A stretch of 24,000 bases of DNA from Paludibaculum fermentans (GTDB lineage: Bacteria > Acidobacteriota > Terriglobia > Bryobacterales > Bryobacteraceae). This document shows positions 2,771 through 13,850 of this stretch, piece by piece. The DNA is taken from positions 9,288,711-9,312,710 of the forward strand of contig NZ_CP063849.1 in NCBI RefSeq assembly GCF_015277775.1. Direction: 5' to 3'. Position 1 is the first letter of the stretch, and every line of letters starts with the position of its first letter. The notes below the pieces were generated by a model. That model was not told where the DNA came from. It worked only from the letters and a program-made list of their open reading frames with translations, and did not search any database. The translations under genes were made by a program, and so were the position numbers.

Positions 2771-3631
2771 TCAAAGCCCGCGCACGGGCACGGTGAAGAC
2801 GGCGGTATTCACCACTCCCAGCCGCTGGAATTGCACCCACAGCCGGTGCATGCCGGGCCGTGGAAACACGACGTTGAACTGCAGATTCGGTCCGCCGCTG
2901 GCCAGGAACGGGTGGGTGTGGATCAGGTCGATCAGATCCGCGCTGGCGACCAGCATGTGCCCCCAGGCTCCGAGATACGGCTCAAGTCCATTGCCCGGCT
3001 CGAGCTCGAAGAACAACATCGTCTTGAGACCCGCAATCGGAGCGGCGGGCTCGGTGCGCAGCGCGACCTTCAGATTAGTTGCCGATTGCGGAGACGTCTG
3101 CGCGGCGAGACGCGGCGTGGCGAACGAGATCTGCCCGCTGCCCGCGCTGAGGATACTCAGGACGGCTAATTGCGGGGTTCCGCCCTCCGGATAGAAGTCG
3201 CCCAGGATCCGGTAGAAGCCAGCCTTCGGCAGCACGGTCTCGAACAGCAGCGTCCCGTCCGGTTGCGGCTCGGGGTGCTCGTGCGCGAAGAACGTTAGAT
3301 CGCCGCTCACAATAAACAAGTGAAAGAGCTTCTCGTGGATCACCTGCAGCTTCGTGACGCGTTGATTGGTGTGCGGATCCCGGATCTCGAAGCGCATCCG
3401 GACCGGCTGGCCCGGTTTCCAGGCGGAAGGTGTGATGTCGAGCAGCAGGCGGTATTCGACCGGCTCCGGAATGCCTGGCACGAGCTTCATGCCGCAGCGC
3501 GGGCAGACCCCCGGTTTGGCCGACCGGACGTCCTTGTCCATCGGGCACAGCCACTCCACCTGGTCCTGCGGCGGTTGACCCAGCAGCACCGGCAGACCGG
3601 CGGCAGTGGCAAGGAAGTGTCGCCTGTACAT
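2771..3631 (-). CDS. Tat-signal periplasmic protein: N-terminal heavy-metal-binding domain (HMBD, CPMD..V....PG.CP.CGM.L) plus two related His-containing beta-sandwich-like domains
   Basis: ATG at 3631 (cat 3629-3631) gives MYRRHFLATAAGLPVLLG, a twin-arginine RRxFL signal. Next comes WLCPMDKDVRSAKPGVCPRCGMKLVP, the HMBD motif seen in CusB-type and copper-related proteins. Two repeated segments then carry FFAHEHP...GFYRILGDF and LIHTHP...GMHRLWVQF. The upstream 88 codons of the 2771..3895 ORF overlap the SDR gene and are rejected. Confidence 0.7.
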   Translation of the reverse strand: MYRRHFLATAAGLPVLLGQPPQDQVEWLCPMDKDVRSAKPGVCPRCGMKLVPGIPEPVEYRLLLDITPSAWKPGQPVRMRFEIRDPHTNQRVTKLQVIHEKLFHLFIVSGDLTFFAHEHPEPQPDGTLLFETVLPKAGFYRILGDFYPEGGTPQLAVLSILSAGSGQISFATPRLAAQTSPQSATNLKVALRTEPAAPIAGLKTMLFFELEPGNGLEPYLGAWGHMLVASADLIDLIHTHPFLASGGPNLQFNVVFPRPGMHRLWVQFQRLGVVNTAVFTVPVRGL

Positions 3632-5586: not shown

Positions 5587-5958
5587 ATGTCCTTGGACGT
5601 GATGATCGTCGACGACTCGGCGGCCATACGCAAGATCCTGCACAGGGTACTAATCCAGGCCGATGTGCCTCTAGGAAAGGTGATCGAGGCCGGTGATGGC
5701 CAGGAGGCCCTGGATAAGTTGAAGTCCGCGATGGTCGGGTTGATCCTCTCCGACATCAACATGCCGAACATGGACGGGCTGCAATTGCTGGGCGCGCTGA
5801 AGACCCAGGAGGCAACGAAGGCGATCCCCATCATTATGGTGACGACTGAAGGCAGCAGCGCCAAGGTGATGGAGGCGGTGTCGTTGGGCGCCTCGGGCTA
5901 TGTCCGGAAGCCTTTCACGGCGGAGCAGATCAAAGAGAAGCTGGCGGGGCTCATCTAG
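5587..5958 (+). CDS. cheY: CheY-like single-domain response regulator
   Basis: 123 aa. Motifs: DVMIVDDS, ILSDINMPNMDG (phospho-acceptor Asp), IIMVTTEG and YVRKPF. SD GGGAGG at 5571-5576 lies 10 nt upstream of the ATG. CheX and CheW genes follow immediately. Confidence 0.85.
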   Translation: MSLDVMIVDDSAAIRKILHRVLIQADVPLGKVIEAGDGQEALDKLKSAMVGLILSDINMPNMDGLQLLGALKTQEATKAIPIIMVTTEGSSAKVMEAVSLGASGYVRKPFTAEQIKEKLAGLI

Positions 5959-5984
5959 GCCGGTTGCCCAACAAGGAGAGATCC

Positions 5985-6521
5985 ATGACACACGAGAGAC
6001 TGGTGACGATGATCCGTCAGGCGACGAAAGACGTATTCGCCACGATGCTGGGCATCGAACTGGAAGACCACCCCGAATACCTGGGTGTCACAGCGCCCGG
6101 CCCGAGTGAAGGCGTATTGGCGATTGTGGGACTGGCCGGCGCCTGGGCGGGGTCGGGTTCCTTCTCCTGTTCCGCGTTGATGGCACAGAAGATTTCGGGC
6201 CAACTCCTAATGCAGGAGTATTCGGCGATCGACGACGACGTGTTGGACGCCATCGGGGAGGTGACCAACATGGTCCTGGGGAATGTGAAGACGGTGCTGG
6301 AGGAAGAACTGGGCCCGATGGGGTTGAGCATCCCGACGGTCATCTATGGCCGGAACTTCACGACGCGGAATGTGGGCAAGAGCCAATGGACGGTGGTCCC
6401 GTTCCAGTGCATCGGGGAAGTTGTGGAGGTGCATCTTTGCCTGGAGCCGGGAAAAGAACTCTCGGCGAAGATCTCCGTGGCGCAGCAGCAGGTTCCGGCG
6501 ATCTTGACGATGCTCGGATAG
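5985..6521 (+). CDS. cheX: CheX-family chemotaxis (CheY-P) phosphatase-like protein
   Basis: ATG 5985 is preceded by a strong SD AAGGAGAG (5972-5979). That SD lies inside the ORF-track TTG 5964 extension, so the extension is rejected. Pattern ..ATKDVFATMLGIE..., GLAGAWAGSGSFSCS..., DAIGEVTNMVLGNVKT fits the CheX/CheC-like fold (..v..vf.tMlg......; ..d.l.E..N.i.G..k). The assignment is from memory. Confidence 0.7.
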   Translation: MTHERLVTMIRQATKDVFATMLGIELEDHPEYLGVTAPGPSEGVLAIVGLAGAWAGSGSFSCSALMAQKISGQLLMQEYSAIDDDVLDAIGEVTNMVLGNVKTVLEEELGPMGLSIPTVIYGRNFTTRNVGKSQWTVVPFQCIGEVVEVHLCLEPGKELSAKISVAQQQVPAILTMLG

Positions 6522-6531
6522 GAGGGCCGCC

Positions 6532-6948
6532 ATGGCGGTCGGCGAGCGATTCCTCGTGGTTCGGTTGGCCGGACAGGAGTACGCGATTCCTTCCGGCCGG
6601 GTCTGCGGCATGCTGCAGACGCGTGGTGTGGAATTGCAGCGTGTGGATGGCCGCGGTGCACTGCGCTATCTGACCAGCGTGCACGGCCGGACTGTGCCCA
6701 TCTATGTTCCGAATCGCACCCTGGGCCTCGCGGAGCGGGCGATCTCCGCCCGCAGTTGCCTGCTATTGATCCGCCAGGCGGAAGCCGATACGGAGGCCCT
6801 CCAGGAAGCCGAATTCGCTCTTGCGGTCGACTCGGTCTCGAGGCTGGAGGTGCTGCCTCCGGCCGCGGTGCGGGCGAACGCCGGCCTGGTGCGCTTGGGC
6901 GACAAGTGGCGGACAGTGCTGGACTTGGAGGCTCTCCGGGCGGCTTGA
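6532..6948 (+). CDS. cheW: CheW-like coupling-domain protein
   Basis: SD GGAGGG at 6521-6526. ERFLVVRLAGQEYAIPSGRVCGML... is the classic CheW-domain opening (..fL.F.l.g..yai....V.ei). The product is 138 aa, the size of a single CheW domain. Confidence 0.7.
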   Translation: MAVGERFLVVRLAGQEYAIPSGRVCGMLQTRGVELQRVDGRGALRYLTSVHGRTVPIYVPNRTLGLAERAISARSCLLLIRQAEADTEALQEAEFALAVDSVSRLEVLPPAAVRANAGLVRLGDKWRTVLDLEALRAA

Positions 6949-9652: not shown

Positions 9653-10480
9653 ATGTCCTGGGCTAAACTTCTCACTCTGGGTTTGCTGGTCTCCGCACCC
9701 TTCGCGACCGCCAGTCCGGTCACTGCGTCCTCGTCCCTGCAGGGCGACGTGTCCGATCAGGGTTTTGCCAATCCGGTCGTCTACTTCACATTCATGGGCA
9801 AGTCCACGAATGTTAACGGTACGGTCTGGCGCGCATTTTGGGTTTTCGACCTGCCCTCCGGCCTCGCACCCGTCACGGAAGCGACGTTTGTGGTGCAACC
9901 CAGCGGCTACTTCGGCGATGGCGCGCAACACACGGTCGTGTTCACTGACTTTTTGCTGTCTCCCTCGCTCCTCTCGGCGAGCTACACGGCGGGCGACGCG
10001 ACCGGGCAGTCGATCTTCGCCGACCTGGGTGCGGGCGCCGTCTATGGCCAGTTGAATGTCGTGCCCTCCGACGCCAGGGTCGATTGCAGCACCCCCTCCT
10101 GCACCGTCCAACCAGGCCATACCCTTTCGCTCAAGTTGAATTCGGCCGGCCTTTCCGCCATCAACGCGAAACTCGGTGCGTCCTTCGTGATCGGCGGGTA
10201 CGTGTCCACCACCAGCCCCAACCTTGTCGGTGATTCGGACGGCGTGCAACTGGGCACTTACTTCAACCACAGCATCGCTGAACTCCAGCTCCAATCCGTG
10301 CCGGAACCGGGCACGGCGAGCCTGTTCGTGCTGGCTGGCCTGGCCGCATTCGCCAGACAGCGCTTCCGGCGTAGATCGCCCGGTTCGCAGGCTGCGCTAG
10401 GCGCTGCGCCGGGCCACGATCAGCGTGATGTCGTCGTGTTGCGGGGCTCCGGCGGCAAAGCGCGTCAACGCCTCCAGTAG
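9653..10480 (+). CDS. PEP-CTERM sorting-signal protein (secreted/cell-surface) with an atypical 34-aa tail after the sorting signal
   Basis: ATG 9653 gives the signal peptide MSWAKLLTLGLLVSAPFATASPV. The C-terminal VPEPGTASLFVLAGLAAFARQRFRRR (PEP at 10301-10309, Arg cluster ending 10375) is a canonical PEP-CTERM motif, TM helix and basic cluster. The frame stays open to TAG 10478-10480. Confidence 0.7.
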   Translation: MSWAKLLTLGLLVSAPFATASPVTASSSLQGDVSDQGFANPVVYFTFMGKSTNVNGTVWRAFWVFDLPSGLAPVTEATFVVQPSGYFGDGAQHTVVFTDFLLSPSLLSASYTAGDATGQSIFADLGAGAVYGQLNVVPSDARVDCSTPSCTVQPGHTLSLKLNSAGLSAINAKLGASFVIGGYVSTTSPNLVGDSDGVQLGTYFNHSIAELQLQSVPEPGTASLFVLAGLAAFARQRFRRRSPGSQAALGAAPGHDQRDVVVLRGSGGKARQRLQ

Positions 10481-12793
10481 TTGATCCGCCGCCGCCTGGG
10501 CGCCCGCTCCGGGTGCGGCCCGCAGGGCGTCCAGCAGCCGGTCTTCTCCGAACTCTTCGCCCTGGGGGTTGCGGGCCTCGGTCACGCCGTCGGTGTAGAG
10601 CACCAGCATGTCTCCGGGCTGAAGGGCCGCCTCCGCCTGTTCGTACTGAGCCCGCCGCGTCATGCCCAGCCCGACGCCCGGCGTCTTTAGCCAGTGGTGC
10701 TCCCCCGTGGCTCGCAGCAGCAGGCTCGGATTATGGCCGGCACAGGAATAACGCAGGGCGCCGCCGGCTGGCTCATACACCCCGTAGAAGAACGTCGCGA
10801 AGCGGTTGGCTGGGGACGCGTCGTACACCAGCACGTTCAACTTGGCCATCAGTTCGCGCAGATCCGTCACGCCGCCCAGGATCAGGCCCCGCAGCGACGC
10901 CTGCAGCCCCGCCATCAATAGTGCGGCGGGGACGCCCTTGCCCGCGACATCGCCGATGGCCAGGCCGACGGCTCCGCCGGGTGTCGTGAGGAAGTCGTAG
11001 TAGTCGCCACCCACCGATTGGGCGGGCACGCAGCAGCCGGCGAGGTCGAGCCCCTGTATCTGTGGGGCGCGCTTGGGAAACAACCGCTGCTGGACCTGGC
11101 TGGCGATCTCGAGCTCATTGTTCAAACGTTCGCGCTGCGCGGTTTCCGTGGCGACCGTGGCCGTGAGCCGGGAGACATCCAGGGCGAGCGCGGTCTGGCT
11201 CGCGACCGATTCCAGAAGTTGCAGGTCGCGGCGCGAGTAGGGCTCCTCGGAGAGCTTGGGGCCCAGGCGCAGGGCGCCGTAATCCTGGTCGGGCGTCGTA
11301 AGCGGCAGGATGAGGTCGCCAAAATCCTGGTAGCCGCCGGCGGGCAGCAGTTCAATGCGGGTGATATGCAGTGCGGCCTGGATGCGGTCCTGCACGATCT
11401 CCAGCAGTTTCTTGGGGTCCGTAATGCGCCGGACCTGGTTGGAAAGCTCGATCAGCACCTGCTCGGTATTCACCGCCTCGCGGAAGAAACGGCGGTCCAC
11501 CCAGGCTCGGACGTGATCTGTGCCATAGCTGACCACCATAATCCCGGCGAGGCAGAGCAGGGTGACAATCCAGCCGCGGCCGCTGAAGGCGACCCAGAGT
11601 AGGATGGCATTGACCAGCAACCGCAGGGCAGTCACCGTGCGGGAGGCGAGCAGTCCCTGGCGGAAGACCACGCCAAGGTCGAACAGGCGGTCAACGAGCA
11701 TGCTGTAGGCCAGTGTGACCGGGATCAGGATGGGAGCCAGCACGCCGGGCATGAGCAGCCAGATCGGGTAGTCGTTCAGGTCCCGGTTGAGCAGCACGGC
11801 TGAGACCATCAGCGCGGTATTCGGCAGGATGCCCAGCATGAGCCCGGCGAGCATCCAGCGCATGCGGCGGCGTGCGGCGGGATGGGTTTCGGCTCGGAAT
11901 TTCACCAGGAAGCACAGCAGGCCGAGGCCAATCAGGGCAAAGTGCCACGACTGGGTGAGTGCCTTCGGGAGATGTTCCAGAGGCCGGAGGATGGCCCAGA
12001 CCTTGGGCTCGGCGAACATGCCGGCGACCAGCGCGGCGCGCGCGGCGTCATGCGGCGTATAGATGACAATCGCGGCGAGGGAGATCCACGACAGCGGCCC
12101 CCGGCGCCAGCGTCCATCGGGAAAGAGCAGCGCGACCGCGCACCAGGCGGCGGGCCAGGCGTTCGAGAATACGTCCAGCAAAATGGCGGTTCCGCTCATC
12201 CACACGCCCCAGCTATAACGCTCGTAGCCGTTGGAGCGTTGCATGAAGGCCAGGCTCAGCAGCAACCAGAGGATGGCGAGGGCGGTTGGGTCGGAGGGCC
12301 GGCGGAAGGCAACCAGGAAGCCGAGCCCGATGCAGAGGACGGGCAGGATGATGTTCAGGCCAAGGGTGAACGCAAAGTCGCCCAACTCGGTCATGGTCTG
12401 GATGGGGGTCACCAGATCGACGGTGCGGGGCGGACCGTCCCCCGTACGCACCGTAAATTGGACGTGCGTTCCACCCGGCCTGGCGAAGAACTCATGGGCG
12501 GCATCGAAGCCGGAGTGGATCGGCACCCCGTTGACCGCCAGCAGCGTGTCCCCTTCCTTGATTCCGCCGTGCGTCGCAAACTCCTTCACCTGGCCCAGGG
12601 CGAGGTTCTCGGGATCAATGACTCCCGGAATACGCGGGACTTGCTGGAAGAGTGGCGTGAGCGAAGTGTAGATGAACCGCGCCTCCACCGCTCCGCAAAT
12701 CACCAGCAGGGCGGAGAGGGCAAGGCGCTGTTTCCAATGCGTCAAGTCCAAATTATAGATCCTGTCCGTCGGTGGCCGAGGATTCCTGGGCAT
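10397..12793 (-). CDS. Membrane-bound PP2C/SpoIIE-family serine phosphatase with N-terminal PDZ domain, polytopic TM region and GAF-like domain
   Basis: ATG at 12793 (cat 12791-12793) gives MPRNPRPP.... The PDZ-like segment is GIKEGDTLLAVNGVPIHS...VQFTVRTGDGPPRTVDL, followed by about 8-10 hydrophobic helices. The GAF-like block is LLEIVQDRIQAALHITRIELL...YGALRLGPK. The PP2C/SpoIIE block is ASQVQQRLFP...GGDYYDF...LAIGDVAGKGVPAALLMA...GHNP...LVLYTDGVTEA...DDITLIV. The longer ORF start at 12964 would overlap selD. Confidence 0.85.
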   Translation of the reverse strand: MPRNPRPPTDRIYNLDLTHWKQRLALSALLVICGAVEARFIYTSLTPLFQQVPRIPGVIDPENLALGQVKEFATHGGIKEGDTLLAVNGVPIHSGFDAAHEFFARPGGTHVQFTVRTGDGPPRTVDLVTPIQTMTELGDFAFTLGLNIILPVLCIGLGFLVAFRRPSDPTALAILWLLLSLAFMQRSNGYERYSWGVWMSGTAILLDVFSNAWPAAWCAVALLFPDGRWRRGPLSWISLAAIVIYTPHDAARAALVAGMFAEPKVWAILRPLEHLPKALTQSWHFALIGLGLLCFLVKFRAETHPAARRRMRWMLAGLMLGILPNTALMVSAVLLNRDLNDYPIWLLMPGVLAPILIPVTLAYSMLVDRLFDLGVVFRQGLLASRTVTALRLLVNAILLWVAFSGRGWIVTLLCLAGIMVVSYGTDHVRAWVDRRFFREAVNTEQVLIELSNQVRRITDPKKLLEIVQDRIQAALHITRIELLPAGGYQDFGDLILPLTTPDQDYGALRLGPKLSEEPYSRRDLQLLESVASQTALALDVSRLTATVATETAQRERLNNELEIASQVQQRLFPKRAPQIQGLDLAGCCVPAQSVGGDYYDFLTTPGGAVGLAIGDVAGKGVPAALLMAGLQASLRGLILGGVTDLRELMAKLNVLVYDASPANRFATFFYGVYEPAGGALRYSCAGHNPSLLLRATGEHHWLKTPGVGLGMTRRAQYEQAEAALQPGDMLVLYTDGVTEARNPQGEEFGEDRLLDALRAAPGAGAQAAADQLLEALTRFAAGAPQHDDITLIVARRSA

Positions 12794-12819
12794 CAGCCGG
12801 AAAACGGCGGCGTTGCATG

Positions 12820-12836
12820 CTGGATAATAGATCCAG
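12820..12836. promoter_or_regulatory. Inverted repeat CTGGAT-AATAG-ATCCAG in the divergent phosphatase/selD intergenic region (candidate operator and -10-like AT patch)
   Basis: Read directly: 12820-12825 CTGGAT, 12826-12830 AATAG, 12831-12836 ATCCAG, giving perfect 6-bp arms. It contains GATAAT (plus strand) and TATTAT (minus strand), the only -10-like hexamers in the 70-bp spacer. Confidence 0.3.
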
Positions 12837-12863
12837 GCCGCAGTGGCCTTGAGAGCCTTTGCA

Positions 12864-13850
12864 ATGAAGAAATTGACCGCGCACGTCAAAGCCGCCGGTT
12901 GAGCGTCCAAGCTCAGTCCAAAGGTTTTGGACCAGGTGCTGCCAGGCGTTCCGCGCCTGCGCAATTCTAACGTTCTGGTGGGGTTTGATACGTCGGACGA
13001 TGCCGGCGTCTACAAGCTCAGCCCGGAGTGTGCCCTGGTGCAGACAGTGGATTTCTTCACGCCAATCGTCGATGATCCTTACACTTACGGGGCCATCGCG
13101 GCGGCCAATGCGTTGAGCGATGTGTACGCGATGGGTGGGCGGCCGGTAACCGCGTTGTCGGTGCTGTGCTACCCGGGCAAGGGCGACCTGGAGGATCTGG
13201 AAGCGATCCTGAAGGGCGGCGCCGAGAAGATGATCGAGGCGGAATGCGCGGTGGTGGGCGGGCATAGCGTGAACGACGAAGAGATCAAATTCGGCTATGC
13301 GGTGACGGGCACGGTTCATCCTGACAGGATCTGGACCAATGCCGGCGCGCGGCCGGGCGATGTTCTGGTACTGACGAAGCCGCTGGGCACGGGTGTGATC
13401 TCGACGGCGCTGAAACGCGGCTTGGCCAGCGACGAGCATGTTGCGGCGTCCATCGCGTCGATGCTGAAGTTGAACAAAGTGGACACCGAGGCCCACGGCT
13501 GCACCGATGTTACTGGCTTTGGCCTGATGGGCCATGGGCGCGAGATGGCGCTGGCCAGCAACGTGACCTTGGAGATTGATTCGTCGGCACTCGAGTTCCT
13601 GGCAGGGGCATTGGAGTATGCCGCGGCGGGGGCTGTGCCCGGCGGGCTGAACAACAACCGGGCGTTTGCGTCCTCGTGCGTCCTGGTGAGCGAAGGAATC
13701 CGGCCCGAAGTGGAAGCCCTGCTCTACGATCCTCAGACCTCGGGCGGGTTGCTGTTGTCGCAATCGCCGGAGCAGGCCGAGGGGCGACCCGTGGGCCGGG
13801 TGATTGGCCGTGTCCTGGAACGGGGCGCAAAGCCCATTCAAGTCTTATGA
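12864..13850 (+). CDS. selD: Selenide, water dikinase (selenophosphate synthetase) SelD, selenocysteine-containing form; in-frame TGA at 12900-12902 read as Sec
   Basis: The body is unmistakably SelD: NVLVGFDTSDDAGVY, VDFFTPIVDDPYTYGAIAAANALSDVYAMGG.P, VVGGHSV, LTKPLGTGV, TDVTGFGLMGH, AVPGG...N, DPQTSGGLL. Reading the same frame upstream of the ORF-track TTG 12927 gives ATG(12864) MKKLTAHVKAAG-TGA-ASKLSPKVLDQVL. This aligns with E. coli ..SHGAGCGCKISPKVLETIL, placing TGA on Cys17 and Lys at +3 on Lys20. A stem-loop follows the TGA. Confidence 0.85.
12910..12940 (+). promoter_or_regulatory. Candidate bacterial SECIS stem-loop downstream of the selD UGA
   Basis: The upper stem GTCCAAA (12916-12922) pairs with TTTGGAC (12926-12932) around GGT. 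It is more likely a 6-bp stem with loop AGGTT. The lower stem is AGC (12910-12912) pairing with GCT (12938-12940), plus C12914-G12935, with an internal loop or bulge. The upper stem starts 13 nt after the UGA and the G/U-containing apical loop lies about 21-24 nt after it. That is similar in geometry to the E. coli fdhF SECIS. Paired by hand only. Confidence 0.45.

Follow-up and report, generated by a model that had tools for sequence, protein, structure and literature searches.

An acidobacterial selD gene with an in-frame UGA that is probably read as selenocysteine

Selenide, water dikinases (SelD) of the selenocysteine (Sec) type and the in-frame bacterial SECIS hairpin have been known for decades, as has the fact that the pathway needs its own product; SelD of Haemophilus influenzae and that of Aquifex aeolicus, whose PDB entries 2yye/2zod show Cys at the site, are examples of the Sec-type bacterial enzyme. 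In the Cys-type enzyme of E. coli, biochemical work has established that the Gly-rich loop with Cys17 and Lys20 is essential. Sec is encoded by 19% of prokaryotic SelD genes, at a site that never varies, which bears out the remark in the initial annotation of the present locus that Sec-type SelD is established in other bacteria; selenoprotein genes are usually misannotated owing to the UGA (Mariotti et al., 2015, PMC4561486). SelD and FdhA are the most widespread bacterial selenoproteins, and three selenoprotein families have been counted in Acidobacteria (Zhang et al., 2006, PMC1794560). In some genomes no selenoprotein other than SelD is noted, and SelD may there be what preserves the Sec trait (Zhang et al., 2006, PMC1794560). 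The further selenoproteins that the initial annotation expected in this organism thus need not exist, and the self-reinforcing loop of a SelD that itself needs Sec was an established idea already. The general features of bacterial SECIS elements, compensatory maintenance included, are set out in the same work (PMC1794560). Eukaryotic SPS2 (SEPHS2) is likewise a selenoprotein at the homologous site, in a pathway that needs its own product (PMC4561486), but its SECIS is a kink-turn in the 3′ UTR read by SBP2, whereas the bacterial element is an in-frame hairpin read by SelB.

The selD gene described here lies in the window, by which is meant the whole 24,000-nucleotide stretch of DNA that was analysed. 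Like known Sec-type bacterial selD genes, it has a UGA at the same codon, a Gly-rich loop and a hairpin directly 3′ within the coding sequence. It differs from them in its lineage, which is that of Bryobacterales/Solibacter-like Acidobacteriota, and in its short hairpin (7 bp with a 3-nt GGU loop). The catalytic loop GxG-C/U-xxK-hSP is common to this SelD and that of E. coli (3u0o); unlike the window gene, however, the E. coli gene has a Cys codon (TGC) and needs no recoding element. With the SECIS elements of E. coli fdhF and Moorella thermoacetica fdhA the window hairpin shares an in-frame stem-loop just 3′ of the UGA and a G(U) 5′ in the apical loop, although the sequences are unrelated and no Rfam model matches. 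The upper stem of the minimal fdhF element lies 11 nt after the UGA, compared with 13 nt in the window selD.

Judged from sequence comparison, the gene is best explained as a selenocysteine-type selD in which the UGA at 12900 is decoded as Sec with the help of the hairpin, and we put the probability of this reading at roughly 0.88. Translation would begin at or near the ATG at 12864. The UGA would then be met by SelB-GTP carrying Sec-tRNA(Sec) and held by the mRNA hairpin at 12916–12932, which would serve as a bacterial SECIS within the coding sequence. Sec would be placed at residue 13, in the Gly-rich N-terminal loop and at the point where Cys-type enzymes have the catalytic Cys, after which translation would run on to the ordinary stop at 13848. 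SelB binding, the presence of selA, selB and selC in the source genome and the incorporation of selenium we infer. The features of the locus are collected in Table 1.

Table 1. Features of the selD locus in window coordinates, with Sec gene clusters of relatives in the coordinates of their own loci
Feature	Position	Strand	Detail
selD coding sequence, if read through	12864..13850	+	328 codons including the putative Sec codon; selenide, water dikinase
Likeliest selD start, ATG	12864..12866	+	12 codons 5′ of the TGA
Gly codon GGT directly 5′ of the UGA	12897..12899	+	Synonymous choice apparently constrained
In-frame UGA, putative Sec codon (residue 13)	12900..12902	+	Alignment to 3u0o and 2yye; TGA/Cys alternation
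Possible weak lower stem	12911..12937	+	12911–12913 with 12935–12937, G-U/C-G/U-G; RNAalifold consensus columns 24–26/48–50
Predicted SECIS, upper stem-loop	12916..12932	+	7 bp, 12916–12922/12926–12932; loop GGU 12923–12925
False starts of ORF and gene callers	12927..12938	+	TTG 12927 (307 aa); GTG 12936 (304 aa)
ATGA overlap, selD stop TGA (13848–13850) and pyrF ATG (13847)	13847..13850	+	Ordinary UGA stop in selD
Compact Sec gene clusters in Acidobacteriota	L022:1268-5941; L050:2808-6930

After the ATG at 12864–12866 come eleven sense codons, MKKLTAHVKAAG, and then the TGA at 12900–12902; past it the frame continues as ASKLSPKVLD... for 315 further open codons to the TGA at 13848–13850. The initial annotation had read the ATG, the TGA and the ASKLSPKVLD segment in just this way, which is correct codon by codon, and had given a 328-aa product with U as residue 13, for which the frame and the stop at 13848–13850 are confirmed. 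Its observation that the ORF call begins at TTG 12927 also holds, as this is the start in the mechanical ORF list; the gene caller on the source contig begins at GTG 12936. Both of these starts remove the catalytic N-terminal loop.

With the TGA scored as Cys, the 328-residue product matches the NCBIfam selD model TIGR00476 with 359.8 bits (cut-off 125), profile positions 1–310 of 311 corresponding to product residues 3–304. Since the match starts at residue 3, the selD profile spans the TGA and takes in the upstream peptide. A second equivalog model, NF002098, scores 304.5 against a cut-off of 299, and the Pfam domains AIRS (PF00586) and AIRS_C (PF02769) are recorded on the called, shortened product. 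The best match among solved structures is E. coli SelD 3u0o (E=6e-67, residues 3–304). In this alignment the TGA lies opposite Cys17 and Lys16 opposite Lys20, in agreement with the placement of both residues in the initial annotation. Aquifex aeolicus SelD (2yye/2zod) gives the same alignment, again with a Cys opposite the TGA (E=4e-57), so that AAG-U-ASK is aligned with GAG-C-GCK (3u0o) and SSG-C-AAK (2yye). On this alignment, the Gly-rich loop with the catalytic Cys/Sec and Lys would exist only with read-through of the UGA.

A search in which each species was represented by a single genome yielded 80 selD loci related to the gene, the closest of them 80% identical. Nearly all are from Acidobacteriota (Bryobacterales/Solibacter and Terriglobia); Chloroflexota, Deltaproteobacteria and Neomoorella contribute a few. 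The codon equivalent to the window TGA was identifiable in 77 sequences, that is, in 76 loci and the window. It is TGA in 61 of the 77, the window included, and TGC or TGT in 16, the 61 being mostly from one phylum, so that the counts do not represent independent events. Among the acidobacterial-type loci sampled, 52/68 are of the Sec type (TGA). Among orthologues of the window gene, 60 share its TGA and 16 have Cys. Outside the TGA codon selD is intact and highly conserved. Cys-type relatives about 70% identical occur inside the same clade, which indicates that switching between Sec and Cys is frequent.

The predicted stem-loop, GUCCAAA-GGU-UUUGGAC at 12916–12932, lies inside the coding sequence and is present in the MFE fold of 12897–12960. 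Counted from the UGA, the stem begins at +13 nt and the apical loop at +20 nt. The fold energy is −5.9 kcal/mol for 12916–12932 alone and −8.7 kcal/mol for 12910–12940. In the window sequence by itself such a hairpin is within chance and is weak evidence: the fold z-score is −1.78, and of 337 UGA triplets on the window's + strand, 30 are followed by a 7-bp hairpin that starts 8–19 nt to their 3′ side. As the single-sequence hairpin is not significant, weight was placed on the comparison with relatives. Searches of Rfam, with the window at gathering thresholds and with 12800–13050 at E≤10, returned no SECIS or relevant family, the sole hit in 12800–13050 being a meaningless snoRNA match (E=6.7). 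In our judgement this does not count against the hairpin, since a short lineage-specific SECIS may have no model.

To assess pairing, the 61 TGA-type sequences were aligned without gaps, and partners slid by 1–3 columns and 500 shuffles served as controls. Standard pairs fill 91.5% of the pair cells in the seven stem pairs, compared with at most 52.4% in the slid controls. There are 46 double-change cells, and two of the stem pairs switch (GC to AU and back, or CG to AU/GC) in 22 sequences each. None of the 500 shuffles matched the observed pairing or covariation, and RNAalifold finds most of the 12916–12932 stem unprompted. In the 16 Cys-type genes, on the other hand, the hairpin is absent, the stem cells being 52.7% paired, which is no improvement on the 48.2% of a slid control. 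The mean MFE over 48 nt from the codon follows the same division, at −19.2 kcal/mol for TGA, −13.2 for TGC and −9.1 for TGT.

Because the stem codes for conserved residues, S-P-x-x-L-D, the synonymous choices were compared between the two groups. The Ser codon is AGT or AGC in a ratio of 51 : 1 in TGA forms and of 4 : 6 in Cys forms. A Leu codon with a final G (NTG) is used in 56/61 TGA forms and in 5/16 Cys forms, and the Pro codon is CCA or CCG in 55/61 and 3/15, respectively. The loop opens with G in 50 of the 61 TGA forms and in one of the 16 Cys forms. This loop G agrees with the G described as conserved in the apical loop of bacterial SECIS elements (PMC1794560). The comparison thus shows that it is the UGA-bearing genes alone that keep the predicted hairpin, through compensatory and synonymous changes.

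The two claims of the initial annotation about this element fared differently in their parts. Of the stem-loop it had drawn at 12910–12940, the upper portion at 12916–12932 with its GGU loop is real, but the lower portion is weak, with three pairs of which two are G-U. This lower stem is equally paired in Cys-type genes and is therefore not specific evidence. As evidence for Sec, the hairpin is statistically unconvincing on its own; what gives it force is its conservation with compensatory changes in the TGA forms only. Another hairpin in the MFE fold, UGAGC/GCUCA over the UGA itself (12900–12915), was considered as a conserved element and rejected, as it is complete in only 7/61 TGA-type sequences. 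It is probably incidental and competes with nothing downstream. In a Cys-type (TGC) selD from a Terriglobia MAG (L027:3019-3084), a hairpin, GAGUCCAAGCAUCCUGGAUUC, was observed at the SECIS position, in a segment with an MFE of −19.2 kcal/mol. It looks like a SECIS remnant left by a recent change from Sec to Cys, such as is known for other genes (PMC1794560).

A further difference between the groups lies in the Gly codon directly before the UGA. GGT is found there in 57/61 TGA-type sequences and in 3/16 of the Cys type, nine of which have GGC. The third-position entropy of this codon is 0.46 bit, compared with 1.55–1.95 for the two preceding Ala codons. These figures point to selection on the U immediately 5′ of the UGA, with codon context or pairing as possible causes.

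The UGA might also be passed without Sec, either by a near-cognate tRNA for Cys or Trp with the hairpin as a stimulator or because UGA has been reassigned. UGA-adjacent hairpins that promote non-Sec read-through have been discussed for insect SPS1 (PMC4561486). Furthermore, the source contig (Logan SRR12931342_98, 40,430 bp) showed no selA, selB or tRNA-Sec over the roughly 34 kb that were covered, namely the window, some 10 kb on its upstream side and the 300 bp or so between its other edge and the end of the contig; the 24,000-nt window itself holds no tRNA genes. Reassignment, however, is excluded, since TGA serves as an ordinary stop more often than any other codon in the window, terminating 10 of the 22 called genes, selD itself among them; any recoding at the selD UGA must consequently be local. 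Read-through by Cys or Trp has against it that residue 13 is the sole position at which SelD enzymes alternate between Sec and Cys (PMC4561486), and that relatives with the same TGA and hairpin have selA and selB adjoining selD. In an acidobacterial MAG of the TGA type (L022), selA is just upstream of selD (TIGR00474, 549 bits) and selB just downstream on the opposite strand (TIGR00475, 328 bits). In Terracidiphilus (L050), which is of the Cys type, tRNA-Sec, selD, selA and selB stand in a row, the tRNA-Sec being called by ARAGORN and scoring 69.4 bits against 47 with Rfam RF01852. The Sec trait is present in Acidobacteriota and travels with selD of this kind. Non-Sec read-through is accordingly very unlikely. 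selA and selB were also seen to adjoin selD in a TGA-type locus from Chloroflexota (L070), in which an odd ARAGORN tRNA call proved by Rfam to be an ordinary tRNA.

Alternatively, the UGA could be a true stop, with SelD made from TTG 12927 or GTG 12936 and the upstream codons forming a leader peptide or no coding sequence at all. A downstream start is, after all, what gene calling gives for the source contig and for most relatives in public collections. The product of such a start, however, would be without the Gly-rich loop that bears Cys/Sec17 and Lys20, and AAAGG lies just 2 nt from TTG 12927, which leaves this start without a well-placed ribosome-binding site. The codons upstream of the UGA, moreover, fit the selD profile from position 1 and are free at their third positions. 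In the 30 nt before the TGA, the mean entropy over 59 distinct TGA-type sequences rises from 0.54 and 0.56 bits at codon positions 1 and 2 to 1.49 bits at position 3; the ten codons vary mainly at the third position and so are translated in the selD frame. The peptide [KR]LT..VKAAG ahead of the codon is kept in both the TGA and the Cys groups, and Cys-type orthologues translate the same segment uninterrupted. A lack of conservation across 12864–12926 among orthologues had been named beforehand as an argument against a Sec-type gene; what is found upstream is selection at the protein level. A true stop is therefore highly improbable. As for where the read-through frame would begin, TAA and TAG codons in frame with selD at 12825–12830 bound its 5′ extension, sequence conservation among relatives stops at about 12864, and a weak Shine-Dalgarno-like GAGAG is situated at 12851–12855, ahead of the ATG. 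An in-frame start 5′ of the TGA is present in 16/16 relatives examined, at a distance of 12–19 codons in 15 of them. On these sequence features the ATG at 12864 is most likely the start of selD, GTG 12843 and TTG 12849 being possible alternatives.

That the gene is simply broken, a pseudogene or artefact in which the TGA arose by nonsense mutation or through a misread or misassembled TGC or TGT, is barely credible: TGA is indeed one base away from either codon and the contig is an automated assembly from a single sequencing run, but 60 further independent assemblies share TGA at this codon, the rest of selD is intact, and the hairpin co-occurs with TGA, not with TGY.

If the UGA is decoded as Sec, the finding amounts to an annotation correction, since the recorded 304-aa product is without the catalytic loop. 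The exact shortened product is present in a public protein collection, in an unnamed cluster of two members. Most near SelD relatives in public collections (P0002–P0121) are 290–313 aa long and start past the Sec codon. Among them is a 303-aa protein (P0081) recorded at NCBI as 'MAG: selenide, water dikinase [Bryobacteraceae bacterium]', which is also shortened; the full-length database SelD proteins examined all have Cys at the catalytic position. The selD of this clade thus looks to be systematically truncated in databases. The corrected gene marks this Solibacter-like acidobacterium as a probable user of selenocysteine and adds to the picture of selenium use as common in soil Acidobacteriota. 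It raises no new mechanistic question, being of a long-known and widespread kind that will not surprise a specialist. A broader generalization, which at present is speculative and rather doubtful, is that Sec-type SelD is the norm among Bryobacterales and other soil Acidobacteriota, with an unusually compact SECIS and a constrained U, that it is perhaps the sole or main selenoprotein by which these mostly aerobic bacteria retain the Sec machinery, and that it is almost everywhere stored as a catalytically meaningless truncated protein. If true, a Sec-type SelD as the acidobacterial rule would be a point of annotation and ecology at the scale of a lineage, not a new mechanism.

The genes around selD offer several minor observations. 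The selD stop overlaps the start of pyrF, which encodes OMP decarboxylase, and the adjacency is kept in 16 related acidobacterial loci, an arrangement that suggests translational coupling; no functional connection between the two is known to us. On the minus strand, a SpoIIE-domain phosphatase (10397–12910, 837 aa) is called from TTG 12910 and overlaps the 5′ coding region of selD at 12864–12910. This call probably reaches too far upstream, the N-terminal part of selD having been treated as non-coding, and an ATG at about 12793 (MPRNPRPP...) is a candidate alternative. The N-terminal conservation of the minus-strand ORF at 10397–12964 mirrors the 5′ coding region of selD and says nothing about the SpoIIE gene; similarly, the long antisense ORF at 12753–13841 is a shadow of selD. 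Farther away, the minus strand at 2771–3631 encodes a 286-aa protein with a Pfam HMBD heavy-metal-binding domain (motif CPMDKDV...CPRCGMKL), adjoined by a short-chain dehydrogenase and an isopropylmalate/isocitrate-type dehydrogenase, and a CheY-CheX-CheW trio occupies 5587–6948. Neither the HMBD protein nor the trio is related to selD.
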